Below are positions 1-11,586 of a stretch of DNA of 11,586 bases, in pieces. Within the stretch, counting starts at the first letter, position 1, and every line of letters begins with the position of its first letter. This DNA comes from Phycisphaerae bacterium (lineage in GTDB: Bacteria; Planctomycetota; Phycisphaerae; UBA1845). The position numbers and the translations under genes were made by a program. The stretch is taken from assembly GCA_029260255.1 (NCBI GenBank), contig JAJDDR010000512.1, positions 1 to 11,586 of the forward strand, read 5' to 3'. A model generated the notes under the pieces. That model did no database searches. It saw nothing but the letters and a program-made list of their open reading frames with translations, and was not told where the DNA came from.

Positions 1-96
1 GTTGGGCGTGCGGGCGGCTTGCAGCGGCGTTCTGCCGTCCAACTCGGGGACGGGGTCGTCGGCCGCGCCGTCGGGCAGGATGATGGCATACTTCAT
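1..96 (-). CDS. N-terminal 32 codons of a cofactor-independent phosphoglycerate mutase family metalloenzyme (archaeal-type ApgM-like). The gene continues past the window start.
   Basis: The reverse complement of 96..1 reads ATG AAG TAT GCC ATC ATC CTG CCC GAC GGC ..., giving MKYAIILPDGAADDPVPELDGRTPLQAARTPN with no stop. This is the characteristic N-terminus (MKY-IL-PDG-AD-P---L-G-TPL--A-TPN) of the archaeal-type 2,3-bisphosphoglycerate-independent PGM / proposed homoserine-kinase family. A GAGGAGG Shine-Dalgarno lies 8 nt upstream of the ATG (complement of 105..111). The six-frame track missed it because it is truncated by the window edge. Confidence 0.6.
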   Translation of the reverse strand, partial: MKYAIILPDGAADDPVPELDGRTPLQAARTPN

Positions 97-200
97 GCGG
101 TGCGCCTCCTCTTCGCTCGCTCTGACGCAGGCAGCATACGCGCGGCGTGGGATCAGGTAAACGGTCTCGCAGCCGACGTCGTGCGTGGCAGTTCGGGTGG

Positions 201-224
201 CATGGCCACGCTTGCGTGGCCATG
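201..224. promoter_or_regulatory. 24-bp inverted repeat CATGGCCACGC-tt-GCGTGGCCATG (perfect 11-bp arms). Candidate operator or hairpin in the divergent apgM-like/metB-like promoter region.
   Basis: Read directly from the sequence: the arms are exact reverse complements. It lies in the 315-bp divergent intergenic region 97..411. An extra GCGTGGC half-site is at 183..189. Confidence 0.4.
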
Positions 225-243
225 TGCCTGGAACCTGTCGCCC

Positions 244-267
244 CATGCCCACGCAAGCGTGGGCATG
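244..267. promoter_or_regulatory. Second 24-bp inverted repeat CATGCCCACGC-aa-GCGTGGGCATG (perfect 11-bp arms). It is a near-copy, in reverse-complement orientation, of the element at 201..224.
   Basis: Read directly from the sequence. It differs from the reverse complement of element 1 only at the symmetric G/C position 5. The centre-to-centre spacing to element 1 is 43 bp, about four helical turns. Confidence 0.4.
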
Positions 268-411
268 CCACCCAACGCCGGTTGCCCGGGACAATCGCCT
301 CTGCTACCGTACCGGCGAAATCGCCCATGCGAACCGGGGACTTTGCTCGGCGGGCGCATTCCGGCGCGCGGTCGTCGCCGCGCTCGAAGTGTTCTGACGC
401 ATTAGACAACG

Positions 412-1569
412 ATGAAGGAGCTTGCGGTGAAGTTTGACACAAGAGTCGTGCGAGCGGGAATGACGCCGGATCCAACCACGGGTGCAGTTGTGCCGCCTAT
501 TTACCAGACCGCGACGTACGTTCTGGAAGAGGTGGGCCGGGACAAAGGCTTCGACTACACGCGATCGACGAACCCGACGCGCCAGACGATGGAGGAGCAA
601 CTCGCGGCCATCGAAGGCGGCAAGCACGCCGTTGCGTTCTCGAGCGGGATGGCGTCGGTGGACAGTTGCCTGAAGCTTCTTAAGTCGGGCGACCACGTGG
701 TGTGCTCCGACGACGTTTACGGCGGCGTGTCGCGACTGTTCAACACGGTGCTCACCAACTACGGTCTGAGTTTCACGTATGTCGATTCCTCGAACCCGGA
801 CAAGGTGCGCGAGGCGATTCAGCCGACGACCAAGATGCTCTGGGTGGAGACGCCGACCAACCCGTTGCTCAAGGTGACCGACCTGGCCGCGATGTCGGAG
901 ATCGCGAAGAAGCACGACCTGATCTTCGGCGTGGATTCGACGTTCGCCACGCCCGTGTTTCTCCGGCCGTTGGAGTACGGCGCCGACATTGCCATGCACA
1001 GCACGACGAAGTATCTCAGCGGGCACAATCAGTTGATCGGCGGAGTCGTCATCACCAATCGGCAGGACATCTTCGATCACATGAAGTACGTGCAGAAGAC
1101 GATCGGCGCCGTTCCCAGCCCGTTCGACTGCTGGCTCACGATGCTCGGCGTCAAGACGCTTCACCTTCGGATGAAGAGGCACGCCTCGAACGCACAGGTG
1201 GTGGCGGAGTTCCTCGAAGCACATCCGAAGGTCGAGCGAGTGTCGTACCCCGGGCTCGCCTCTCACCCGCAGCATGAAATCGCCAAGGCACAGATGAGCG
1301 GGTTCAGCGGCATGATCTCGTTCGAGCTGGTCGGCGGAATCGCAGCGGGCAAAACAGTGATGAACAACGTCAAGCTATGCGCGCTCGCCGAGAGCCTCGG
1401 CGCCGTGGAGACCATGATCACCCACCCGGCGACCATGACGCACGTGGACGTCCCGCGCGAGGAGCGCTGCGCCAGAGGACTGACCGACGGGCTGGTGCGC
1501 ATCTCGGTGGGCATCGAGGATCCCGACGACATCGTGGCCGACCTCGCCGCGGCACTCGAAAGGGCTTGA
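412..1569 (+). CDS. PLP-dependent Cys/Met-metabolism enzyme of the trans-sulfuration family (cystathionine gamma-synthase, cystathionine beta/gamma-lyase or methionine gamma-lyase type).
   Basis: 385-aa ORF with the full family signature. It has an N-terminal RAG...VPPIYQTATY segment, a glycine-rich PLP-phosphate loop (SSGMAS), and DSTFATPVFLRPLEYGADIAMHSTTKYLSGH carrying the PLP-lysine (TTKY). Length and motif order match MetB, MetC and MegL. The start is ambiguous: ATG 412 has no Shine-Dalgarno, whereas the in-frame GTG 427 is preceded by AAGGAG at a 6-nt spacing. The subfamily (synthase or lyase) cannot be decided by eye. Confidence 0.9.
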   Translation: MKELAVKFDTRVVRAGMTPDPTTGAVVPPIYQTATYVLEEVGRDKGFDYTRSTNPTRQTMEEQLAAIEGGKHAVAFSSGMASVDSCLKLLKSGDHVVCSDDVYGGVSRLFNTVLTNYGLSFTYVDSSNPDKVREAIQPTTKMLWVETPTNPLLKVTDLAAMSEIAKKHDLIFGVDSTFATPVFLRPLEYGADIAMHSTTKYLSGHNQLIGGVVITNRQDIFDHMKYVQKTIGAVPSPFDCWLTMLGVKTLHLRMKRHASNAQVVAEFLEAHPKVERVSYPGLASHPQHEIAKAQMSGFSGMISFELVGGIAAGKTVMNNVKLCALAESLGAVETMITHPATMTHVDVPREERCARGLTDGLVRISVGIEDPDDIVADLAAALERA

Positions 1570-1616
1570 CCCCTTCTCTCAGCCTGCGACCAGCGATCTT
1601 GGCATGCCAAGCGTAG

Positions 1617-1640
1617 GGCGGGTTCCACCCGCCTTAATGC
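1617..1640 (+). terminator. Possible intrinsic terminator of the trans-sulfuration gene: GGGCGGG-ttcca-CCCGCC stem-loop followed by TTAATGC.
   Basis: A 6-7 bp GC stem with a 5-nt loop lies 48 nt after the stop. The downstream tract is only weakly U-rich. It is preceded by a perfect 14-bp palindrome, CTTGGCATGCCAAG, at 1598..1611. Confidence 0.3.
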
Positions 1641-2012
1641 TCCGTTCACAAACTCTGAACCGACAACGTGCGCGCCCGATTTCCGAACGCGGCACAACCC
1701 GGCCGAGCACAGACCGCACACACGAACTGACCGGTCACGGTCGAAGTGTGCGGCACGTTCGCGCGATTAGCCGTACAGTGCAAAGTGGTCAGAACCGCGC
1801 CCGTCAGGAAGCGGCCTCGCGCGCATGAGGCGTTTGCGAGGGTTCGGCGCCGCTCCTTAACAGTCGCGGTTCTGCCACTGTGTCGACCTTGCGCTGTACT
1901 GTTAGGGTCCGGGCGCATCGCTGCACACGTCCAGCACCCCGCGACCCTGTGCATCCACCTCCGGCGTGGTATGATTCTTCCCGCGAACAACTCACAACGA
2001 CGGAGTGCCCGA

Positions 2013-2141
2013 ATGCAGGATCAGATCAAAGACCTCACGGACCGTGTCGCCCGCCTCGAAAAGCAAGTTCGGGCCGTCGCGCTCATGTGTGTTGTGGTCG
2101 CATTTGTCGCCGCGACCGCGTTCTGGATGCCGCTGTTGTGA
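2013..2141 (+). CDS. Hypothetical 42-aa small membrane protein with an N-terminal coiled-coil-like segment and one C-terminal transmembrane helix.
   Basis: ATG 2013 with GGAG 7 nt upstream. It encodes MQDQIKDLTDRVARLEKQVRAVALMCVVVAFVAATAFWMPLL, an amphipathic heptad-like N-terminus followed by a 20-residue hydrophobic stretch. The longer six-frame ORF 1746..2141 is Arg-rich nonsense upstream of this ATG. Confidence 0.3.
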   Translation: MQDQIKDLTDRVARLEKQVRAVALMCVVVAFVAATAFWMPLL

Positions 2142-2584
2142 AGACCGCGCCGCGTGCCCCTTATCAAGGTGCGTCGCTGCAGCATTCGCGATTCCGCAAG
2201 TGGCGCGAGTGGGTGGGGTTGGTCGGGTGTGTGGTGATTGTGGCGCCGGCCGATGCAATGCGACGCGGTGCCCGTCGCGCTGACCACACCTCGACCGGGG
2301 ACGCAGAGCCGGCCCCGCGCGGGATACGCCGCCGCCCGAAGCCGCTCGACGACAGACCCGACGTGACACCGGAAGCCGACCGCCCTCGTCCCGAACGGCG
2401 CCAAAAATCGCCCATATTGACCCGGAACACGGGCGCGCCGAAATCGAGCAGAAATCTGCGCACCGCCGCGCCCTTATATAGGTAGGGAGACAGCCGCCCC
2501 GGCGTTCCGAACACGCCGCCAGCCGATCGGAAGCGTCCGGCGAGAACACAAACGAGAGTGCCTTGTGCGAAGCGTCGATATGCC

Positions 2585-2710
2585 TAGGACATGTGAAAAA
2601 ATGGACCCAAAACACCGTTTCCAGACTGCAAACGCCGATTTTGCAGCGAAACGAAAAGCCGCAATGACGAAACGAACCCATTTGCAAGTCTCACTGCAAT
2701 TTCGCAGATG
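2585..2710. promoter_or_regulatory. AT-richer island packed with short inverted and direct repeats inside an otherwise GC-rich non-coding stretch of about 890 bp. Candidate regulatory region or small RNA.
   Basis: It contains an inverted repeat CTGCAAA-N7-TTTGCAG at 2626..2646. It contains the direct repeat CGAAACGAA twice, at 2647..2655 and 2668..2676, 21 bp apart. It contains an inverted repeat TTGCA-N7-TGCAA at 2682..2698. TTGCA/TGCAA half-sites occur four times in all, and there is an A6 tract at 2595..2600. No credible ORF covers it on either strand. Confidence 0.3.
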
Positions 2711-3083
2711 GGGCGTGAGGCTCCGAAACAGCCCGTCCGAAGCAGCCTCGATGGCGGACGCGTCCGCAACCACGCGTCGCGAAGAGCCCCCGGGCGCGGC
2801 GCCTGCAGGCGTAGGACCGCTGCACGACCCGCCGGGCGGATACCGTCCGTTCCGTGGGAAGTGCCAGCTCAATGGCACTACGCGACCGACCGGGTCGGGC
2901 GACGCGGAATCGACTTGCCGGCCCCCCGGGACGTGCTCAGGCAGGCATCGGTCGAATCTTGCGTGATCCGTTCGGAAACGGTTCGGCGTTTGTAATGGGC
3001 AGTTCGCGTCGCCTGATGTAAACTGTAGGGAGATGGTCGCCCCGTCTATTGCGACCTGGATCTCGCAACGCGGAGCAGGAGTC

Positions 3084-3803
3084 ATGATCTTACTGGCAGC
3101 ATCGATTCTGGAGTTTTCACCGTTGGCGGCGCTGACGACGGCGGGCATGCTTTACCTGATCTGCCTGATCGTCGGTGGCGGGCTTCTGCTGGTGTCGACT
3201 TTTCTCGGCGGTGACGCCGACGTTGACGTCGACGGCGGCGCCGATTTTGATTTCGACGCGGACCCGGATATCGACTTCGACGGCGACGTGGACCTGGACG
3301 CTGATGTCGCAGCGGATGCACCCGGGCTCTCGATCACCGACTGGTTCTCGACGCGATTCCTGGTGTACTTCGCGGCCGCGTTCGGGCTGGTCGGCACCGT
3401 GCTGACGTACACGTCAGCCATGGGATCGACGGCGATCCTGGTGAGCGCATTGGTGGGCGGCGTGATCGTGGGACAACTCGTCCATCAGGTGTTTCGAGCG
3501 CTGCGCAAGACCAGCGGCAACACACAAACCACGCGGCGAGACTACGTCAATCGCCGCGCCCGCGTGACGATCGCCATCGAGCCGCCGCGGCGCGGTGAAG
3601 TCGCGTTGCGCGTGCGCGGGCGCGAGCGTTTCGTGCCGTCGACGTCACAGCGGTCCGATGACCGATTCGTGGTCGGCGACAGCGTGGCCATCGTGGCGTT
3701 TGACAACGGAACGGCGGAGGTCGTTTCGCTGAGGGAATACGAGTTTCTGGCTGAATCCAAGGCAGGAGGCAACGATGAACACGACACTGATGGCACAGCT
3801 TAA
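3084..3803 (+). CDS. NfeD-like membrane protein (YuaF/COG1585 type; membrane anchor plus C-terminal OB-fold), the partner of the downstream flotillin.
   Basis: Two N-terminal hydrophobic helices (MILLAASILEFSPLAAL..LICLIVGGGLLLVSTFLGG) are followed by an acidic D-x-D repeat linker and two more helices. A C-terminal beta-rich segment (RARVTIAIEPP..GEVALRVRG..FVVGDSVAIVAFDNGTAEVVSL) is typical of the NfeD OB-fold. It sits immediately upstream of, and overlaps, an SPFH/flotillin gene, which is the classic nfeD-flotillin operon. ATG 3084 has GGAG 8 nt upstream. The longest ORF begins at ATG 3033, but that ATG directly abuts GGGAG. Confidence 0.8.
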   Translation: MILLAASILEFSPLAALTTAGMLYLICLIVGGGLLLVSTFLGGDADVDVDGGADFDFDADPDIDFDGDVDLDADVAADAPGLSITDWFSTRFLVYFAAAFGLVGTVLTYTSAMGSTAILVSALVGGVIVGQLVHQVFRALRKTSGNTQTTRRDYVNRRARVTIAIEPPRRGEVALRVRGRERFVPSTSQRSDDRFVVGDSVAIVAFDNGTAEVVSLREYEFLAESKAGGNDEHDTDGTA

Positions 3804-5121
3804 TTCCGAGACCGTTGTTCTGATCGGCGGCGGCATTCTGTTCATGATCGTCGCGGCGGCGGTCCTGGTCGCCAAGATCATGGTGGTCGGGAACCCCAGC
3901 GAGTTGCTGGTGATCAGCGGGAAGCAGACGCGTGGCGGGGACGGTTATCGCACGCTGATCGGCGGGCGCACGATGGTGATCCCGATCATCGAAAAGGTCG
4001 CCCGCGTCAGCCTGCGAAACATGCAGGTCGGGCTCGAGGTGAAGGCCCAGTCCGGCGGCGGGAGGATGATCCCGGTCACCGTGACCGGAGTGGCCAACGT
4101 GAAGGTATCGTCTGAACCGGACGTGCGTGGCAACGCCATCGAACGATTCCTGGGTCAACCGCAGACGGAATTGCAGCGCGTCGCGCGCGAAACGCTCGAG
4201 GGCGGCTTGCGCGCGGTGATCGGCAAGATGACGCCGGAGGAGATCGTCGAGGATCGCGATAAGTTCGTGGCGACGGTGATGAACGAAGTCACCGACGACT
4301 TCTGCAAACTCGGGATGGTGATCGACAGCGTCAATATCCAGAACGTACACGACGAGGACCAGTACCTCGAATCGATCGCCCGCAAGGCGTCGGCGCAGGT
4401 CCGTGCGGACGCTCGCCAATACGAAGCCCAGCGCAAATCGGAGGCCGACATCAAGGAAGCGGAGGCGGACGCTCTGGCGCGCGGAGCGCGTGCCGAACGA
4501 GACGCCGAGGCAAAAGAGACGGAGGCGCGCGGACGGCAGCGCGCCGAGCAGGCGCGACTCAGCGCGGAAACCGCCATCGCAGAATCCGACAACGCCCTGC
4601 GCATAAGGCGCGCGGAACTGGCCCGCGAGGCCGAACTCCGTGAAGCGGAAACGCAACAGGCTGCGGCGCAGGCCGAGGAGGCCCGCCTGTTCGCCACCAC
4701 GGTCAAACTGGCCGACGCCAATCGGGACGCGGCCAAGGCGAAGGCCGAGGGTGACGCCGCGTCCATCGTGGAAGAGGGAAAGGCACGCGCTTCCGCGATC
4801 GAGCAGATCGGCAAGGCGATCCACGCGCATCCGGATGCGCTGAAGGTCATTCTCGCCGAGATGCTGCCCGGCGTCGTGCAGGAACTCAGCAAGACCATCC
4901 AGGGCGTCGAGTTGGGCGACATCACGGTATTCGATGGCGGCAGCGGCAGCGCCATTGCCGGCGCGGCCATGAGCCGGGCGCGGATGCTGTCGGAATCGAT
5001 GGGGACGCTCGAGTCGGTGCTCGGCATCGACCTGCGCGATCTCACAAAGACGATCGCGGGCAACGTGACGAGTAATTCCAAGGGCGACGGCGCCCCCCGA
5101 ATCGCCGACGCAACGGCGTAG
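3775..5121 (+). CDS. Flotillin-like SPFH/Band-7 protein (FloT/YuaG type).
   Basis: 448 aa. It has an N-terminal membrane anchor (VVLIGGGILFMIVAAAVLVAKIMVV) and an SPFH/PHB core (ELLVISGKQTRGGDGYRTLIGGRTMVIPIIEKV...). A long E/A/R-rich coiled-coil 'flotillin' region follows (AQRKSEADIKEAEADALARGARAERDAEAKETEARGRQRAEQARL...). A strong GGAGG Shine-Dalgarno lies 5 nt upstream of ATG 3775. The gene overlaps the NfeD-like gene by 29 nt. Confidence 0.9.
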   Translation: MNTTLMAQLNSETVVLIGGGILFMIVAAAVLVAKIMVVGNPSELLVISGKQTRGGDGYRTLIGGRTMVIPIIEKVARVSLRNMQVGLEVKAQSGGGRMIPVTVTGVANVKVSSEPDVRGNAIERFLGQPQTELQRVARETLEGGLRAVIGKMTPEEIVEDRDKFVATVMNEVTDDFCKLGMVIDSVNIQNVHDEDQYLESIARKASAQVRADARQYEAQRKSEADIKEAEADALARGARAERDAEAKETEARGRQRAEQARLSAETAIAESDNALRIRRAELAREAELREAETQQAAAQAEEARLFATTVKLADANRDAAKAKAEGDAASIVEEGKARASAIEQIGKAIHAHPDALKVILAEMLPGVVQELSKTIQGVELGDITVFDGGSGSAIAGAAMSRARMLSESMGTLESVLGIDLRDLTKTIAGNVTSNSKGDGAPRIADATA

Positions 5122-5162
5122 CGCGTTTGGCGCGGCGTGTTGGCTGGGACGAAGCGTTGGAG

Positions 5163-5735
5163 TCAATCGGCGTTCTTGACCGCCTTCAGCGCGTAGCTCC
5201 AGTGCATGTGGTCTTCGAGGGTCAGGTAGATCATCTCCCAGTCGTACTCGGCACAGAATTCGTGGACGGCTTGGACGACGCCGTACGCGATGCTCTGCGC
5301 AATGCTGCCCTGGCAGTAGTCATGACCGGCGATGATGCCGCCTGACTTGACCTTGCTCCGGCATAGCTCGAGTTCCTTGACGGTCTGCTCGTAGGCATGA
5401 CTCGTGTCGATGTACACCCAGTCGAAGTAGTCGTCTTCGAACTCGGCCAGCCGGGCCAGCGAATCGCCTTTGTGAATTGTGACGCGATCGGAGGCAACCT
5501 CATCGGCGAACCGTTCCCTGACGGACTTCTCTTTGGCGTCGCCGAATCGTTCGCTTCCCCACATGTCAATGAGGTGCAGTTTCGCAGGCTGTGTGAGCTT
5601 CAGTATCCTGGCGGAGAAGCCACCCTCGTCCACGCCCAGCTCCGCAATGACCCCGTTCTTGGGAAGCATCTGGAGCATCTTCGATCGTCGGGGCAGCGCG
5701 TTGAGGTTTCGCAGGTGTCTTCTGTGAATGGACAT
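5163..5735 (-). CDS. Class I SAM-dependent methyltransferase (small stand-alone O-/C-methyltransferase-like protein). The substrate is unknown.
   Basis: Motif I is VIAELGVDEGGFS (E/D-x-G-x-G-x-G-like). An acidic residue ends beta-2 (HLIDMW). The post-motif-II segment is DWVYIDTSHAYEQT...SGGIIAGHDY. The ORF extends to 5777, but the first ATG (5735) has GGGGA 5 nt upstream. It is convergent with the flotillin gene. Confidence 0.8.
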   Translation of the reverse strand: MSIHRRHLRNLNALPRRSKMLQMLPKNGVIAELGVDEGGFSARILKLTQPAKLHLIDMWGSERFGDAKEKSVRERFADEVASDRVTIHKGDSLARLAEFEDDYFDWVYIDTSHAYEQTVKELELCRSKVKSGGIIAGHDYCQGSIAQSIAYGVVQAVHEFCAEYDWEMIYLTLEDHMHWSYALKAVKNAD

Positions 5736-6027
5736 ATCGATCCCCGGGTTTCGTCGGATTCCAGCGGCCGGCAGCATGCCGCGTGCGTCATAGCGGCGTC
5801 GCGTCTACTGCCCGAGGGCCCATCGTGCGCCCGGTGACCCGCATTGTCTCCGAGTGACGTCAGCGTATGCTATGATACACCGTGCCTGCCGACAAGTCCT
5901 CGGACGTCGGCCGTGCTTGTTGCAAGCCGGGGTTCCCGGCGGAATCGAACCGAGGATCGGGGCGTCGGCGCGCGTTGCGCGCGGGCGGCTTCATCGTCGG
6001 GCTAACTTCAAACCGTGGAGACCGTGG

Positions 6028-7401
6028 ATGCGTCGAGTCCTTCTTTCCGCCGTCGCTGTGATGTGGACGCTCCCCGCGCATGGTCAACAGAGCGACGACG
6101 ATCGTACCCGCGCGCCCCGCGTCCAGACGGTGACACCCGCGACGGGCGCAGAGGGAGTCGCACCCGGATCGGCCGAGATTCACGTGCGCTTCGACATGCC
6201 TATGAGCCGAGAAGGCTACTCGTTCGTCGGCAGCGGTCCACACTTTCCACAGCCGACGGGCGCGGCCCGCTGGATCGACGCGTACGAGTGTGTTCTGCCG
6301 GTGAAACTCAAACCGAGCTGGGTATACCGATTCGGCATCAACAGCCCTCGGCACAAGAACTTCCGGAGCGTGTGGCTTGTGCCGGTCGTGCCCGTCGCGT
6401 GCCAGTTCGAGACGGCCGGCGTGAGTGCCGTCAAGCATACGCCGGACGAGCAACGCAGGCTGAATATCACGTCCTACGATGCGCTCTGTGAGGCGATGCG
6501 CACGCGGTACTCCTATCTCGAGCGTCTCGGTCTCGACTGGGAAGCGGTTTTTGCCGCGCACCGGAAGGAAGTCGTCGACGCGCCCGATGTGCAAGAGTGG
6601 ACTCGGCGTGCGGCGCGGATGCTGTCAAGCGCGGAGGATCTTCATCTGCTGCTCGAACTCGATGGCGACAAACACGCCACTGCGGTTCGCTCGGTGACGC
6701 CGAATTGGAACCGGGCGTCGACCAATGAGGCGTTTCCGGACATGCGGGACCTCGGGAGCGGGGTGGCCGTCGCCCGGGCGAGTGACGGCATCGGTTACGT
6801 GCTGATCGGCACGTGGTCGAACGACGCGGGAGCCGCGGTCGAACGCCTCCACACCGTGTTCGCGGAGATGGTGGACGCGCCGGGGATCGTTATCGACGTG
6901 CGACCCAACGCCGGCGGTAGTGAGACGCTCGCGCGGAAGGTGGCCGCGTGGTTTGTGGACAAGCCGCGCGTCTATGCAAGACACGCGTTTCGCCGGGGAC
7001 CGAACTCGGACGACTTCACGCCGGAACGGGAGCGCACTGTCAAGCCTAATGATGCTGACCGGCGATATCGCGGCCCCGTCGTCGTGCTCATGGGCAGAGC
7101 GAACATGAGCAGTTGCGAGGCGTTCCTGCTGATGATGAAGCAGGCGCCGAATGCGACGCTGGTCGGCGAAACGTCTTATGGCAGCTCGGGCAATCCGAAG
7201 CCTGCTTTCCTGCCCAATGGAGTGATCGCCCACATCCCGTCGTGGAAGGCGATGTTGCCGGACGGATCGACGTTCGAAGGACGCGGCATCCCCCCGGACG
7301 TTGAAATCCCGTCCAAGGGCGTCGACTTTGCCAAGCGCGACCCCGTGCTGGACGCGGGCCTCCGGCTACTGCGCGAACGGGCAGCGAACAAGGAACGGTA
7401 G
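6028..7401 (+). CDS. Secreted S41-family serine peptidase (C-terminal-processing/tail-specific protease-like) with an N-terminal signal peptide and an N-terminal beta-rich (Ig-like) domain.
   Basis: ATG 6028 with GGAG 7 nt upstream gives the signal peptide MRRVLLSAVAVMWTLPAHG|QQ. The S41 core motifs are present: GIVIDVRPNAGGSE, GPVVVLMGRANMSSCEAFLLMMK (candidate catalytic Ser in SSCE and Lys in MMK) and TLVGETSYGSSGNP. The upstream 58 codons of the long ORF 5854.. are Arg-rich and do not look coding. Confidence 0.85.
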   Translation: MRRVLLSAVAVMWTLPAHGQQSDDDRTRAPRVQTVTPATGAEGVAPGSAEIHVRFDMPMSREGYSFVGSGPHFPQPTGAARWIDAYECVLPVKLKPSWVYRFGINSPRHKNFRSVWLVPVVPVACQFETAGVSAVKHTPDEQRRLNITSYDALCEAMRTRYSYLERLGLDWEAVFAAHRKEVVDAPDVQEWTRRAARMLSSAEDLHLLLELDGDKHATAVRSVTPNWNRASTNEAFPDMRDLGSGVAVARASDGIGYVLIGTWSNDAGAAVERLHTVFAEMVDAPGIVIDVRPNAGGSETLARKVAAWFVDKPRVYARHAFRRGPNSDDFTPERERTVKPNDADRRYRGPVVVLMGRANMSSCEAFLLMMKQAPNATLVGETSYGSSGNPKPAFLPNGVIAHIPSWKAMLPDGSTFEGRGIPPDVEIPSKGVDFAKRDPVLDAGLRLLRERAANKER

Positions 7402-7468
7402 GGGCGACTGTGACCGGATGATCGCAAGACGGCCAGCGCCGACCGCCGACAGGGCGATCCCACGGGAG

Positions 7469-7486
7469 TTCGCCTCGCCAGGCGAA
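7469..7486. terminator. Stem-loop TTCGCCT-cgcc-AGGCGAA between the convergent peptidase and vsr genes. Possible bidirectional terminator with no U-tract.
   Basis: Read directly from the sequence: a 7-bp perfect stem with a 4-nt loop. No T-run follows on either strand, so the assignment is weak. Confidence 0.2.
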
Positions 7487-7534
7487 GGAAGAACCCCACC
7501 CTGGCCGATCACTTGATCGCGCCCGGAACAGCCT

Positions 7535-7939
7535 TCAACCCCGCAAGGAATCCCGCAGGCGCTTCGCCAGCCAATCGGGACGGCGAGTCCAACATTCCCA
7601 TACGACCATTGCCTGCCATCCCTGTCGTCGGAGGTCACGCAGGTTTCGACGATCCCTCGTCTTGTTCTGTTCGAACTTCGTGAGCCAGAATTGCCGCCGA
7701 GTCGCCGGTGTCGTCGCTCGCTTGCATCGATGCCGATGCCAGAAGCACCCATGAACGAAGATGATCTTGCGGAGCCTCGGAAGGACGATATCTGGTGAGC
7801 CGGGGAGATCTCGGACGTAGAGACGGTAGCGATACCCCATCCCGTGGATGAGTCTTCTGACGATCAGTTCGGGCTTCGAGTCCCGCTGCGGGACAGCGGC
7901 CATCATTCGCGATCGCTGCTCTGGCGAAACGATGTCCAT
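7535..7939 (-). CDS. vsr: Very-short-patch repair endonuclease Vsr (T:G mismatch endonuclease that accompanies C5-cytosine methyltransferases).
   Basis: 134 aa from MDIVSPEQRSRMMAAVPQRDSKPELIVRRLIHGMGYRYRLYV..DIVLPRLRKIIFVHGCFWHRHRC...FW..K...N..RD......L...GW...VVWEC. It aligns along its whole length with E. coli Vsr, including the FxHGCFWHxHxC signature. The six-frame ORF extends to 8077, but that part overlaps the upstream gene. ATG 7939 lies 17 nt after the upstream stop. Confidence 0.9.
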   Translation of the reverse strand: MDIVSPEQRSRMMAAVPQRDSKPELIVRRLIHGMGYRYRLYVRDLPGSPDIVLPRLRKIIFVHGCFWHRHRCKRATTPATRRQFWLTKFEQNKTRDRRNLRDLRRQGWQAMVVWECWTRRPDWLAKRLRDSLRG

Positions 7940-7956
7940 CCGCTGCAGTTGCCCCT

Positions 7957-8655
7957 CTACACAACGTACGCTTTCTCCGCGATGTACTTCTGGATGTTCT
8001 CCAAAATGCCTCTCACGAAGACGACAGCCTGCTCCTTTGTCTCGCGCAACTGGTCCACCGTGAATGCCCTGCCGCACTCACGAAACGACAAAACACCATG
8101 GGCAAGGTGGTTCCGCTGTGCAACCACCGTAGCGAGGTCGGCACCACCCAGAGCGTCTGGCGGTGTTTCCACCGGGATTCCGAGGCGATGGCAGATTACT
8201 CGTACCTTCTCTGCATCTAGATTGCCTGCTGTTGGAAGATGCTGGGAGTCCATTGCGACCACGACTTGATTCACTACGTGGGAGACGAGCTCCTTCGCTG
8301 TGTCCTGATACGTCCTCAGCGACGCTGAATGTCGGTCAATGCCCCGAAACTGCTGATCAATCCAGACTGACCGAACCTCCTCCCGAAGGTCCTCGCACTT
8401 GCATCCTTCACTCTTCATTGTCTCATAGAGCGAGCCGAGCGCACTCCGAATAGCAGCTTCGACGAGGTTGTAGATCAACAAGAACGACGTGGCCTTCAGG
8501 GTCTTCACCCACTCTCTGTCGATTTCCTTCTCGAGATCGTGGTTATCGCCCTCGAACACGAGCCTTGCATTGGGCTGTTCAAGGTCGCCAAGGGACTCAA
8601 AGTACGTGTTGATCTCCGCTACACGCTCGTCAAAATCGTCAAGCACACCCTTCAT
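7957..8655 (-). CDS. 232-aa predicted all-helical protein with a C-terminal R-x4-H motif (AQRNHLAHG). Putative HEPN-like RNase effector partnered with the DUF262 protein.
   Basis: Clean ORF with codon usage like its upstream neighbour. The start ATG overlaps the DUF262 stop as ATGA (8652..8655). A GAGGAGG Shine-Dalgarno lies 7 nt upstream. The only recognisable catalytic-looking motif is R-N-H-L-A-H near the C-terminus, followed by a predicted helix, which is the HEPN arrangement. No PD-(D/E)xK, HNH or DUF1524 signature was seen. The functional call is inference. Confidence 0.55.
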   Translation of the reverse strand: MKGVLDDFDERVAEINTYFESLGDLEQPNARLVFEGDNHDLEKEIDREWVKTLKATSFLLIYNLVEAAIRSALGSLYETMKSEGCKCEDLREEVRSVWIDQQFRGIDRHSASLRTYQDTAKELVSHVVNQVVVAMDSQHLPTAGNLDAEKVRVICHRLGIPVETPPDALGGADLATVVAQRNHLAHGVLSFRECGRAFTVDQLRETKEQAVVFVRGILENIQKYIAEKAYVV

Positions 8656-9710
8656 TCCCTCGCCTCCTCGAGCAGTCGGTCGCGGACGTACTCGATCCTG
8701 CCTTTCAGGCGGGGAAGCGAGTTGCTGGCGTGCGTGGTTGTATGGGTTTTGAAGTCTGGTGAATCAAGCCACGCCATCGGACCCGGGATTAGGTCAGGGT
8801 GCTCGCGGAGTGCGAGGTTGACGCCCACGGAAATCGCCTCGAAGCGTACCCGTGGCGCCGATCGCATTTGGGGCCCTTTGGCGAATCCGTGGGGGAAATG
8901 CTGCTCTACGAATCGAAGCATACGAGCGAATTCTCGTGCCATGCTCTCCTCATCAAAACCCTTCTGCTGGTCGCAAGCGAACTTGTCCAAGAATTTATGC
9001 ACAGAATGACGGAATTTCTTGTAGCGATCGGAGTAGGCAAAGAAACGTAGAACCAATTCCGTGGGTTCACGCCGTAGACGCATGATCTCACTGATAGGGC
9101 AGAGCTTGCCAAAGAGCGGATCCTGTGAGACGCGCTTGAGGAAGTCCATGAAGGGACCCGGATAAGCACCCCTTCGGACTTCGCTCGGTCTGGCTTTTTC
9201 GCCTCGTGTGTTGATTCTCTTGAACAACTCGTATCGCAAATCGCGAGTCGTTCTCTCCTCCAACACGACTATCCGAAGTGGGCGACTCGCGAACTTGCGC
9301 TGCTGCGATGTCGGAAGGTCTGAATGATAGAAGTCGTTGAGGCTGTGGAGTTTCTCCAAGCCCGTTAGCCTGAGTCCATCCTCCATGAAACTCTCGAGCG
9401 TGTACATGCGCTGGGCGCCGTCGACGATCTCAAACCGCCCATCGTCCATCTCCGCGAAGAACATCATCGGAATTGGCAGACCGAGGATGACGGATTCTAT
9501 GAAGGCACACTTGTTGCTCATGCGCCACACGTATTCGCGCTGGTAGTCTGGGATGTAGTACAGATCTTCCCGGAATTTGCCCACAAGGTAGTCGATGGGA
9601 AGGTCGCGAATATTGAAGTCGACGTCCCGCTGAGTCTGTCGTATCTGTTGCTCGGCGCGCCTCTGCTCTTCGGGGGTCACTTTGAACAGCTCGACTGAGG
9701 CCTTGGACAT
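8652..9710 (-). CDS. Stand-alone DUF262 protein: ParB-like/'DGQHR' NTPase domain, the N-terminal domain of GmrSD/SspE/BrxU-type modification-sensing enzymes. It has no fused DUF1524 nuclease.
   Basis: 352 aa. The hallmark motifs are IPDYQREYVW (IPxYQRxYxW), LGLPIP, EIVDGAQRMYTL (DGxQR) and LFKRINTRGEKARPSEV. The C-terminal 170 aa are helical without His-Me or HNH motifs. A GAGGT Shine-Dalgarno lies 6 nt upstream of ATG 9710. It starts 10 nt after the MTase stop. Confidence 0.9.
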   Translation of the reverse strand: MSKASVELFKVTPEEQRRAEQQIRQTQRDVDFNIRDLPIDYLVGKFREDLYYIPDYQREYVWRMSNKCAFIESVILGLPIPMMFFAEMDDGRFEIVDGAQRMYTLESFMEDGLRLTGLEKLHSLNDFYHSDLPTSQQRKFASRPLRIVVLEERTTRDLRYELFKRINTRGEKARPSEVRRGAYPGPFMDFLKRVSQDPLFGKLCPISEIMRLRREPTELVLRFFAYSDRYKKFRHSVHKFLDKFACDQQKGFDEESMAREFARMLRFVEQHFPHGFAKGPQMRSAPRVRFEAISVGVNLALREHPDLIPGPMAWLDSPDFKTHTTTHASNSLPRLKGRIEYVRDRLLEEARE

Positions 9711-9720
9711 GTTTGTACCT

Positions 9721-10863
9721 CTACCCGATATGGTCCATTATGTTACTGATGACGTATGCGGACATCACCGGAGGGACGGCATTCCCAATCAAATCCTGGA
9801 GGGACCTCCGTGTTTTGGCCGCTGAGAAATCGAAGAAATCCGGGAAGCCCTGGATTCTCGCGGCTTCGTGCGGCGTGATGACGCGCGGGCGCGTCGGGTG
9901 GACGAATCGACCTTGGCCCATGCAGCCGAAGCCGGTGGTGATCGTCTGGGCGGGCTGATCCCATTTCAGGCGGCCGTACATGGAGATGTAGCTGTGGCCG
10001 TTCTCATGGCACGGCGGGCGCTGCTCGTTCGGCAGATCGTACACATCGTGCTTGAAGAGGTATTCGACGCGTTTGCGGTTGCGCAGCGTCATGCGAGATG
10101 GCGTGCGGAACATCTCGGTTCGGTGTTCCGACTCGTCCTGAATGTCGGCGAGATAGTCCGAGACGGCGACCGGCTGCTGACAATCGGTCGGGAAGGCGTC
10201 GGCGACGTCGAATTCGGCATCTCGCACGGCGAGGAGGATGTGTCGTTTGCGGCGCTGGGGCAGACCGAGCGTCGAGGCCCTGACGATGCGGGCCGCGACG
10301 GAGTATCCGAGAGACTTCAGTGTCTTGAGGCTGCGCGCCACGACGTTCGAGTGATCGTGAATGACCGGACCCACGTTTTCGATGAGCACGATTCGGGGCT
10401 TCAGCAATTCGACCGTGCGGACCACCCGCAGGTAGAGCGCGTTTCTCGGGTCCTTCCGCCGTGTGTGGTTGTTCAGGTCCGAATGCCCCTGACAGGGAGG
10501 GCCTGCCACGAGGATGTCGACCTTGCCGGCCTTCCGAACTGCCGTTAGTTCGACAGCTTGCGGTGGTGATCCCAGCTTTCCCGGGAACACTTCGCGGATA
10601 TCGATCTCCCGAGCGGTTGTCTTCGAGACGGCGAAGTTCGCTCGGTACACGGCCAGTGCATCACCACAGGTGTCGATCGCGAGTTTGACCTTCAGTGTCT
10701 TGTTGTTGACGCGCGCCGCCTCCCAGGCGCCGAGCGTGAGCCCCCCGCAACCGCAGAACAGGTCGACGATCGAGACCGTCCCGCGGGATGTCTGTGGAGG
10801 CGTCGGCCACGTTTTCCAGCGAATCCACGTGGCGGCACAGATGCTGGCCGGTGACGACGGCAT
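9721..10863 (-). CDS. DNA (cytosine-5)-methyltransferase (Dcm-like C5-MTase).
   Basis: All C5-MTase motifs are present in order: I IVDLFCGCGG, IV ILVAGPPCQGHS (catalytic Cys), VI LIENV, VIII QRRKRHILL, TRD element RLKWDQPAQTITTG, and IX/X GNAVPPVMSAYV. The ORF in the track starts at an in-frame TTG (10899). The first ATG is 10863, and neither has a good Shine-Dalgarno. About 30 aa precede motif I. Confidence 0.9.
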   Translation of the reverse strand: MPSSPASICAATWIRWKTWPTPPQTSRGTVSIVDLFCGCGGLTLGAWEAARVNNKTLKVKLAIDTCGDALAVYRANFAVSKTTAREIDIREVFPGKLGSPPQAVELTAVRKAGKVDILVAGPPCQGHSDLNNHTRRKDPRNALYLRVVRTVELLKPRIVLIENVGPVIHDHSNVVARSLKTLKSLGYSVAARIVRASTLGLPQRRKRHILLAVRDAEFDVADAFPTDCQQPVAVSDYLADIQDESEHRTEMFRTPSRMTLRNRKRVEYLFKHDVYDLPNEQRPPCHENGHSYISMYGRLKWDQPAQTITTGFGCMGQGRFVHPTRPRVITPHEAARIQGFPDFFDFSAAKTRRSLQDLIGNAVPPVMSAYVISNIMDHIG

Positions 10864-10998
10864 GGGCGGCACTATACCCGCGAGGGCAGGCGACGCCAAC
10901 TCACGCTACGTGTCCAATACCCAAGGACGCCGGAAGTGCCATTGCGCGCGCCGGGTGTCCCGGAAGAGTCACACGCCGATCGCCGCGGGCCGCGATCA

Positions 10999-11586
10999 CT
11001 ATCGCCTGCTGTAGAGTCGATCGTCTGCGCTGAGGAATCCGTTCTTGGGGAAGTCCATCAGCATCTCGGCTGTGGCGGACGCGCCGGGCTTGCGGAAGCG
11101 CGCGGTGGTGGACTCGCCGTGGCCGTCGACGAAGGTGATGTTCGTTGCGTTCGCGTGGCGGTATGCCTGGGTGCCGGCGTGAACGAGCGCTTCGGGCACG
11201 CCGGTGTCACGCGGTGCGCGCATGAACTTGTTCGCGCCGGAAGCGTAGCCGCCGTCTCCGGTGATGGCCGTCGCTGACGGGCGGCGCATCTCCGTATCCA
11301 GGGCGGGCGATTCGCCCATTCCGAGAAACGAGCCCTCGCCTTGGCCTCTGCCGATGTAGGAGGTGTTGTAGTTGTAACCCGTGAAGGGGTCAGCGGCGGT
11401 CATGCTCGGGCCCTTGTACGACGGGCACTGCTGGGTTTCATGACCCTGAATATACCGCCAGATGAGTCCGGGCTCGGTACTGCCCGAGGCCGTGGGCCGA
11501 CTCGTCGTATCCCACGCGACCCACGCGCCGTTGCTGTGGTCGAAATACTGCGCGATGGGAAACCGATCCGCGTTGTCGTTGGTGTA
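10999..11586 (-). CDS. C-terminal part of a DUF1559 protein with a prepilin-type H-X9-DG motif (planctomycete-type pseudopilin-like secreted protein). The gene start lies beyond the window end.
   Basis: The reading frame is open from the window end through to stop TAG at 10999..11001 (...YTNDNADRFPIAQYFDHSNGAWVAWDTTSRPTASGSTEPGLIWRYIQGHETQQCPSYKGPSMTAAD...). The terminal H-ANATNITFV-DG is an exact H-X9-DG. The M at 11403 in the six-frame track is internal. Confidence 0.8.
   Translation of the reverse strand, partial: YTNDNADRFPIAQYFDHSNGAWVAWDTTSRPTASGSTEPGLIWRYIQGHETQQCPSYKGPSMTAADPFTGYNYNTSYIGRGQGEGSFLGMGESPALDTEMRRPSATAITGDGGYASGANKFMRAPRDTGVPEALVHAGTQAYRHANATNITFVDGHGESTTARFRKPGASATAEMLMDFPKNGFLSADDRLYSRR

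Follow-up and report, generated by a model that had tools for sequence, protein, structure and literature searches.

A DUF262-HEPN gene pair as a probable exchangeable effector module in a mobile dcm-vsr operon of a Phycisphaerae bacterium

A genomic neighbourhood in which a HEPN protein of the MAE_28990 family stands with ParB/DUF262 and DNA methylase genes was listed, as a one-line table entry from comparative genomics, by Anantharaman et al. (2013; PMC3710099). Combinations of COG1479/DUF262 proteins with nucleases or HEPN proteins have been proposed to form a cell-death module tied to DNA modification systems (Makarova et al. 2013), and PD-T4-2, which combines DUF262 and HEPN domains, is described as giving validated protection against T4 (Vassallo et al. 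2022; PMC9519451). In GmrSD, BrxU and SspE, DUF262 is the sensor of DNA modification, and hydrolysis of nucleoside triphosphates (NTPs) switches the nuclease on. Genes of the GHKL/paraMORC type have been described together with DCM and Vsr (Iyer et al. 2008; PMC2292703). The locus considered here is a DUF262-HEPN gene pair lying between dcm and vsr in a Phycisphaerae bacterium (Planctomycetota, UBA1845; GenBank assembly GCA_029260255.1, contig JAJDDR010000512.1), of which a stretch of 11,586 nucleotides (nt; positions 1 to 11,586 of the forward strand), hereafter the window, was analysed. The pair is probably an exchangeable effector module, seated in the middle slot of a small mobile operon that resembles a restriction-modification (R-M) system based on 5-methylcytosine (m5C), in which the HEPN protein would halt the cell.

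The four genes run head to tail on the minus strand in the order dcm, DUF262, HEPN and vsr. The dcm gene (9721-10863) encodes a C5 cytosine DNA methyltransferase (MTase) of 380 amino acids (aa) that matches Pfam DNA_methylase (1.8e-52), TIGR00675 and the PADLOC model MTase_II (6.4e-96), and in which motifs I, IV, VI and X are readable as DLFCGCGG, GPPCQ, ENV and GNAVPP. Its open reading frame (ORF) itself opens at TTG 10899, and the start is placed at ATG 10863 because the N-terminal sequence MPSSPASICAATWIRWKTW is shared with L001, a contig of a Phycisphaerae metagenome-assembled genome (MAG). After 10 nt follows the gene for the DUF262/ParB-like NTPase (8652-9710; 352 aa), which has a helical C-terminal (ParBDB-like) domain; its stop overlaps, in ATGA, the start of the gene for the HEPN protein, a predicted RNase (7957-8655; 232 aa). 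A further 17 nt separate the latter from vsr (7535-7939), whose 134-aa product, a very-short-patch-repair endonuclease, scores above the cut-offs of both Pfam Vsr (3.4e-28) and TIGR00632 (137 bits; cut-off 97.85).

The HEPN protein belongs to the same family, PF18737 (HEPN_MAE_28990; 1e-22, 81.8 bits against a cut-off of 26.8), as that of the neighbourhood tabulated in 2013, and its Rx4H motif, in the form R-N-x3-H, is intact and invariant across 13 homologues. With a DUF262/ParB gene immediately upstream and a C5 methylase adjacent, the locus has, on its sequence, every feature of that neighbourhood, a kind of system that has been predicted and is uncharacterised. Unlike the window, the 2013 entry carries no mention of Vsr, of the M-X-V layout or of an exchange with GHKL genes. 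The likeness to PD-T4-2 extends to its component A, whose PADLOC model (PD-T4-2_A, PDLC04027) is matched by the DUF262 protein at 2.8e-31, but not to component B. The HEPN domain of PD-T4-2 is listed under PF18735, where the window's protein reaches 20.6 bits and so misses the cut-off of 28.4; nor does this protein match PD-T4-2_B or any other PADLOC model at E <= 10. The passages that describe the gene content of PD-T4-2 report no adjacent methylase.

The DUF262 protein carries all three ParB-DUF262 motifs as defined by Li et al. (2025; PMC12065111), here QREYVW, DGAQR and FKRIN. Its best PADLOC model is NsnA (2.1e-57, residues 20-280), followed by PD-T4-2_A, and there is a weak match to REase_II (PDLC03418; 8e-16) through the ParB domain. 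Pfam GmrSD_N (PF03235) is matched at 3.8e-25, with no Pfam match past residue 182. An AlphaFold2 (AF2) model (predicted local distance difference test score, pLDDT, 88) shows a ParB fold followed by an all-helical C-terminal half, and Foldseek matched the model to BrxU, ParB CTPases, SspE and sulfiredoxin; no nuclease domain was recognised in the protein by Pfam, by PADLOC or in the AF2 model with Foldseek. This build, a ParB-DUF262 domain with a helical ParBDB-like domain, is that of NsnA in the Menshen system (NsnABC; Li et al. 2025), but the window holds neither the NsnB ATPase nor the inPIN-nuclease NsnC, and downstream of DUF262 there are only HEPN and vsr. With GmrSD, BrxU and SspE the protein shares a ParB/Srx-fold DUF262 NTPase domain and the DGxQR motif; it differs from them in the absence of a DUF1524 HNH nuclease, in its length (352 aa against ~580 for BrxU) and in having a separate HEPN protein as its effector. 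DUF262 relatives of the same build numbered more than 2,700 in one search, and copies of the DUF262 and HEPN combination occur on plasmids and in a P2-like phage.

Compared with a Type II R-M operon of the M-R-V layout, the locus possesses the C5 methyltransferase with its catalytic motifs and a Vsr linked to the m5C methylase, but not the cognate DNA endonuclease, since no DNase domain is recognised in either middle protein. The window has no GHKL gene of the type described by Iyer et al. (2008), its effector being an NTPase with a predicted RNase, but such a gene is found in the same dcm...vsr frame elsewhere. The frame was compared with its cargo through a metagenome scan anchored on dcm. 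In contig L093, dcm and vsr are 87% and 83% identical to those of the window, and between them lies a single gene of 650 aa, which matches the PADLOC model REase_II (4.7e-94), that of a restriction endonuclease (REase), and has an N-terminal GHKL ATPase domain (HATPase_c_3 in Pfam). A GHKL-type gene fills the slot in L095 and L097 as well. In L094, with dcm at 86% and vsr at 84%, the slot holds a DUF262-HEPN pair that is 45%/29% identical to the window's, both proteins being clear Pfam members, and L099 holds another divergent pair. The frame part of dcm is, by blastn, 87-88% identical to that of L093 and L094 and 76% to that of L095. In L095 an insertion sequence (IS)-like remnant (1400-2140; reverse-strand ORFs without a Pfam match) sits between dcm (75%) and the GHKL-type gene, and the slot therefore accepts insertion sequences too.

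The limits of the exchange are sharp. In five independent contigs (L093, L094, L095, L097 and L099) the nucleotide match with the window breaks off at 9770, and in the four of them that include vsr it is picked up again at 7909. The first position lies just past dcm motif X, GNAVPP, and the second just ahead of RSRMM in vsr; in the encoded proteins, conservation of dcm extends through LIGNAVPP and that of vsr begins at RSRMMAAVPQRDS. The C-terminal tail of dcm (15-25 residues; 16 codons in the window) and the first ~8-10 residues of vsr co-vary with the type of cargo, which could be a recombination footprint or indicate that they physically contact the cargo proteins. In these two pieces (9721-9769 and 7910-7939) the window is the same as L001, and L093 is the same as L095. 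The minus strand is thus divided at these breakpoints into the frame portion of dcm, which is conserved and reaches as far as motif X (9770-10863; GC 62.8%), and an exchangeable effector segment (7910-9769; GC 55.2%) that comprises the dcm tail, the DUF262 and HEPN genes and some 10 codons from the start of vsr.

Neighbour-joining trees with bootstrap were relied on for terminal sister pairs only, as inner supports were possibly misplaced by re-rooting. In the dcm tree the GHKL-bearing L093 is sister to L094 (100%), which holds a DUF262-HEPN pair, and L096 is sister to L099 (97%). The vsr tree likewise unites L093 and L094 (89.5%), and it joins L002 to L097 (98.5%), another contig with a GHKL gene. 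By cargo the sister groups are L094 and L099 (98.5%), L002 and L096 (100%), and the window and L001 (100%), so that frame and cargo trees are in conflict at 89-100% bootstrap support. Because of this conflict, of the breakpoints and of the occurrence of the same frame with other cargo, the segment 7910-9769 is regarded as an effector slot with its own history. The view that the four genes form one co-inherited unit, drawn from the collinearity of L001 and L002 and from similar synonymous divergence (dS), was dropped once the same frame had been found with other cargo. The variable, target-recognition-domain (TRD) region of dcm is as conserved across frame clades as the rest of the gene, which is compatible with one shared methylation specificity, a condition that would allow free swapping of cargo. 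An interchange of a GHKL REase-like gene with a DUF262-HEPN pair in one frame, with breakpoints in conserved motifs, was not found described in the literature searched.

The slot is also visible in base composition. The sequence-only reading, which had the identities of the four genes and their operon-style spacing right, took the pair for a lower-GC cassette with limits at 7957 and 9710 in a dcm..vsr frame of host GC, on the strength of hand counts in six 60-nt samples, all of which are right within 2 points. The GC content of 7957-9710 is indeed 55.4%, against 64.0% in the left flank (1-7534), where the lowest value in any 1754-nt stretch is 62.1%, and 65.7% in the right flank. A two-change-point likelihood fit agrees, returning one low-GC segment at 7591-9841 (55.7% inside, 64.0% outside) with 2*dLL = 53.5, where the highest of 100 block shuffles reached 28.4; its right edge is tight (support interval 9751-9886) and its left edge loose (7506-8196), so that vsr can be included. 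The dip is real and far beyond chance, and the proposed limits lie close to the recurrent breakpoints at 7909 and 9770 without being identical to them. GC at third codon positions (GC3) is not uniform across the four genes: HEPN (0.665) and DUF262 (0.686) are low against 0.798 for six pooled host genes (Fisher p = 1e-5 and 5e-6), whereas dcm (0.783) resembles the host (p = 0.57) and differs from the pair (p = 0.002-0.004). A frame of host composition accordingly holds for dcm but not for vsr, whose GC3 of 0.681 is like that of the pair (p = 0.002 against the host). An excess of AAA, GAA and TTT codons in the cassette proved weak, with 4.3 per 100 codons in HEPN and 6.5 in DUF262 against 3.9 in host genes and 3.7 in dcm; the only synonymous departure among the three is AAA in DUF262 (9 of its 18 Lys codons), where the GAA and TTT fractions are not above those of host genes. 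At second codon positions (GC2) the pair lies at 0.35-0.385 and most host genes at 0.43-0.51, and amino-acid composition accounts for about half of the overall difference in GC, the remainder being synonymous. In all nine frames examined, whatever the cargo, GC3 of the cargo is below that of dcm, by less than 0.03 for the L001 DUF262 gene and the L097 GHKL gene. The GC dip is thus attributed to slot contents that are consistently richer in AT than their frame.

The operon as a whole also appears in more than one place. L001 is 83.7% identical to window positions 7709-10910, gapless from the dcm start into vsr and unrelated in its flanks, and has all four genes at 74-92% identity. In its vsr (4818-5090), which is truncated or degenerate beyond ~58 codons, the ~85% identity to the window drops to 63% and is then lost. 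The same four-gene layout recurs, at 46-75% protein identity, in L002, where vsr is present though not called as a gene, and in L096, so that the arrangement is in part conserved among relatives. Relative to L001, the window's dcm has a dS of 0.61 and its DUF262 gene one of 0.56, and since L001 is collinear and gapless and these two values are alike, the four genes were already together in the common ancestor. The HEPN value (window 7957-8655 against L001 4102-4800) is 0.33, well below the other two, which could reflect gene conversion, constraint at the nucleotide level or noise. Homology to L001, L093 and L094 starts at 10903-10919 and ends at 7531-7535, with unrelated flanks beyond, and delimits a 3.4-kb island on the minus strand at about 7531-10919. 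Three related Phycisphaerae genomes have the four-gene operon, each at a different site. The genomes that bear L001 and L002 have an S41 peptidase orthologue (59-61% identical) on another contig with no cassette adjoining, and L089 shows the same synteny as the window, orf3033-flotillin(83%)-S41, without the island. Both marks of a horizontally acquired island, a composition that differs from the host's and a variable location among relatives, are found here. The window shows neither an integrase nor a transposase at the island, and repeats flanking it, direct or inverted, do not exceed chance; IS elements adjoin some relatives (L007, L095 and L174). Judged by these comparisons, the whole four-gene operon is itself mobile, and dcm and vsr are not resident host genes.

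The sequence-only reading had explained the dip by horizontal acquisition of the pair and its precise insertion between a pre-existing dcm and vsr; taken literally, this is a recent event at resident host genes. That the pair lies below dcm and the host genes in GC and GC3 speaks for such an event, as does the arrangement in distant dcm relatives (46-52% identity), where dcm and vsr are mostly directly adjacent (~100 nt apart), with a GHKL gene nearby, and which make a bare dcm-vsr pair a plausible deep ancestor. It is nevertheless largely refuted, and very improbable, because dcm and vsr move together with the pair as the gapless block seen in L001 and at three sites in three genomes, because dcm and DUF262 have diverged to similar depth, because vsr has the low GC3 of the pair, and because every close frame already holds some cargo. 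The separate history of the middle part stands; the pre-existing host status of dcm and vsr does not. Neither does the precision of an insertion between genes, for the junctions are intragenic, and the last 16 codons of dcm and first ~10 of vsr travel with the cargo. An exact empty site was sought through the closest S41 peptidase homologues and their synteny, which yielded island-free loci, none of them with a precise empty junction. On these comparisons the pair is not a recent insertion into native host genes, and the arrangement is old in this lineage; the event is better described as replacement of an effector module than as insertion into a bare dcm-vsr pair.

More widely, DUF262 lies directly upstream of HEPN in all 87 HEPN-anchored loci, a few of which are duplicate contigs. 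Of the 83 pair-bearing loci, 59 have a C5-MTase beside the pair; they span many phyla and at least three dcm lineages and show three MTase layouts, which map to clades of the pair tree. On the Roseomonas plasmid pOT10-1 (L174, 2913-6660) the genes overlap in the order DUF262-HEPN-dcm, an IS5 transposase comes next, and the HEPN product is named by PGAP a 'MAE_28990/MAE_18760 family HEPN-like nuclease'.

Several observations weigh against an exchangeable module that works with Dcm. Some concern the exchange itself. Between frame clades A, B and C, identities are 68-70% for DUF262, 63-67% for dcm and 72-75% for vsr, an apparent co-divergence of pair and frame on which the pair may, in the lineage of the window, be an old or even the original cargo and not a newcomer; the GHKL gene, at 63% identity between frame clades, has diverged about as much as the frame. 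In L001, moreover, GC3 of dcm equals that of the pair. A rise of dcm GC3 in the window's lineage, considered because synonymous changes relative to L001 run 57 towards GC and 24 the other way, was rejected; since four of the five clade-A dcm genes have GC3 of 0.75-0.78, it is the L001 value that dropped. The co-divergence and the equal GC3 in L001 would be expected if the four genes had always been inherited together and the dip were intrinsic to proteins rich in Lys, Glu and Phe, with their low GC2. The GC2 of the pair fits such an account, and so do other loci, where total GC of dcm exceeds that of the pair in 53 of 54 and the mean difference in GC3 is about zero (-0.016). The GC3 of the window's pair nevertheless differs from that of dcm and, at p about 1e-5, from that of the host; frames 82-92% identical hold unrelated cargo, the tree conflict is strongly supported, and the breakpoints are sharp and recurrent. 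Constant co-inheritance, contradicted by L093, L094 and L097 unless these contigs are assembly chimeras, is accordingly the least probable of the explanations weighed here.

Other observations concern the dependence on methylation. No methylase is near at least 18 of the pairs, which stand by themselves among housekeeping genes and essentially make up one cyanobacterial clade. They include L024, L025, L055, L071, L079 and similar loci, at about 1800-6700; in L024 the pair is downstream of the aconitase B gene, and sister loci have an ORF of the same size (~890 aa) in that position, which suggests one conserved chromosomal site for the clade. The E. coli P2-like phage P2_4B2 (L173, NC_049387.1, 140-2015) carries a pair at its genome end without a C5-MTase. 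This pair is full-length, 41%/30% identical to the window's (E = 9e-101/3e-32) and annotated as hypothetical proteins; like the window's, it matches the NsnA and PD-T4-2_A models and not PD-T4-2_B. Because of the stand-alone clade and the phage copy, a linked Dcm is not always needed, and the stand-alone clade is the main argument against an obligate dependence on it. The effector, too, departs from the classical scheme, as HEPN domains are RNases and not a DNA-cleaving restriction arm, and a sequence search of the PDB found no close solved homologue of the DUF262 protein (BrxU being a marginal match at E = 0.014), and a PDB search with the HEPN profile found nothing.

The pair could, then, be an autonomous defence of PD-T4-2 or Type IV-like kind that senses phage DNA modification or some other cue, has no need of Dcm and merely uses the frame as a carrier. 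The lack of a reported methylase beside PD-T4-2, in the passages that describe it, is in keeping with this, the DUF262 proteins so far characterised sense modified and not unmodified DNA, and defence genes are known to nest in other defence systems (bioRxiv 10.1101/2024.01.29.577857). Such autonomy is unlikely, although it is far from negligible. It is C5-MTases specifically that the pair adjoins, in most loci, in three layouts and in several dcm lineages. Ten sampled neighbourhoods of methylase-less pairs contained no MTase of another class, the neighbours being aconitase B, ClpB, ArgRS and the like. The pair also fills exactly the slot of the REase-like gene of sister operons, and the tail of dcm co-varies with the type of cargo.

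The flanks of the island are ordinary chromosomal genes, among them an S41 peptidase, a flotillin and a cystathionine gamma-synthase on one side. On the other, a gene on the minus strand (10999-11586), a fragment at the window's right edge, has no family match in Pfam or NCBIfam and ends ~80 nt before the conserved block of the island. A promoter-like site upstream of the dcm ATG (TTGGCG-17-TATAGT; 10871-10899, minus strand) is a single consensus match, as many as the 0.9 expected by chance, and lies inside the conserved block; its position alone is noteworthy and at most suggestive. Nothing beyond chance was found in a search for terminators at the ends of the island. Between flotillin and the S41 peptidase lies a gene for a Methyltransf_24-family methyltransferase (5163-5777, minus strand; GC 58.9%, GC2 0.385) that is missing at the syntenic L089 locus, where the flotillin-S41 gap is 177 nt, and which may be a second small insertion.

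For the exchangeable module, the following course of events is proposed. Cargo would be exchanged by recombination in the most conserved coding stretches, after GNAVPP in dcm and before RSRMM in vsr. Dcm would mark host DNA as self with 5-methylcytosine, and Vsr would repair the T:G mismatches that arise from deamination of this base, limiting the mutation that it drives. The DUF262 protein, an NTPase of the ParB type with a helical DNA-binding domain, would read the DNA, probably its methylation state, and act as an NTP-driven switch, a sensing role assigned to it by analogy with GmrSD, BrxU and SspE. The translationally coupled HEPN RNase would be under its control, so that, once foreign DNA is sensed, RNA is cleaved and the cell is halted, with an anti-phage outcome as the presumed result. 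The main argument for regarding the pair as the equivalent of the restriction arm is that in sister operons an REase-like gene fills exactly that slot. A bolder proposal, which is possible but falls short of probable, makes dcm and vsr a portable recombination scaffold, with GNAVPP and RSRMM as homology arms, into which effectors keyed to the same m5C mark are swapped within a population; the pair would then be the true 'restriction' arm, with Dcm methylation as its self mark and RNA, not DNA, as what is cleaved.

Pairs of DUF262 and HEPN are widespread, and this operon family points to the pair as standing in functionally for a restriction enzyme. It amounts to a natural experiment, with a methylase and a Vsr that change little and whose partner is in one case a GHKL REase-like protein and in another a DUF262-HEPN pair. 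The locus also urges caution with arguments from base composition, for the dip seen here marks an exchangeable slot within a mobile element and not a boundary between host and foreign DNA.

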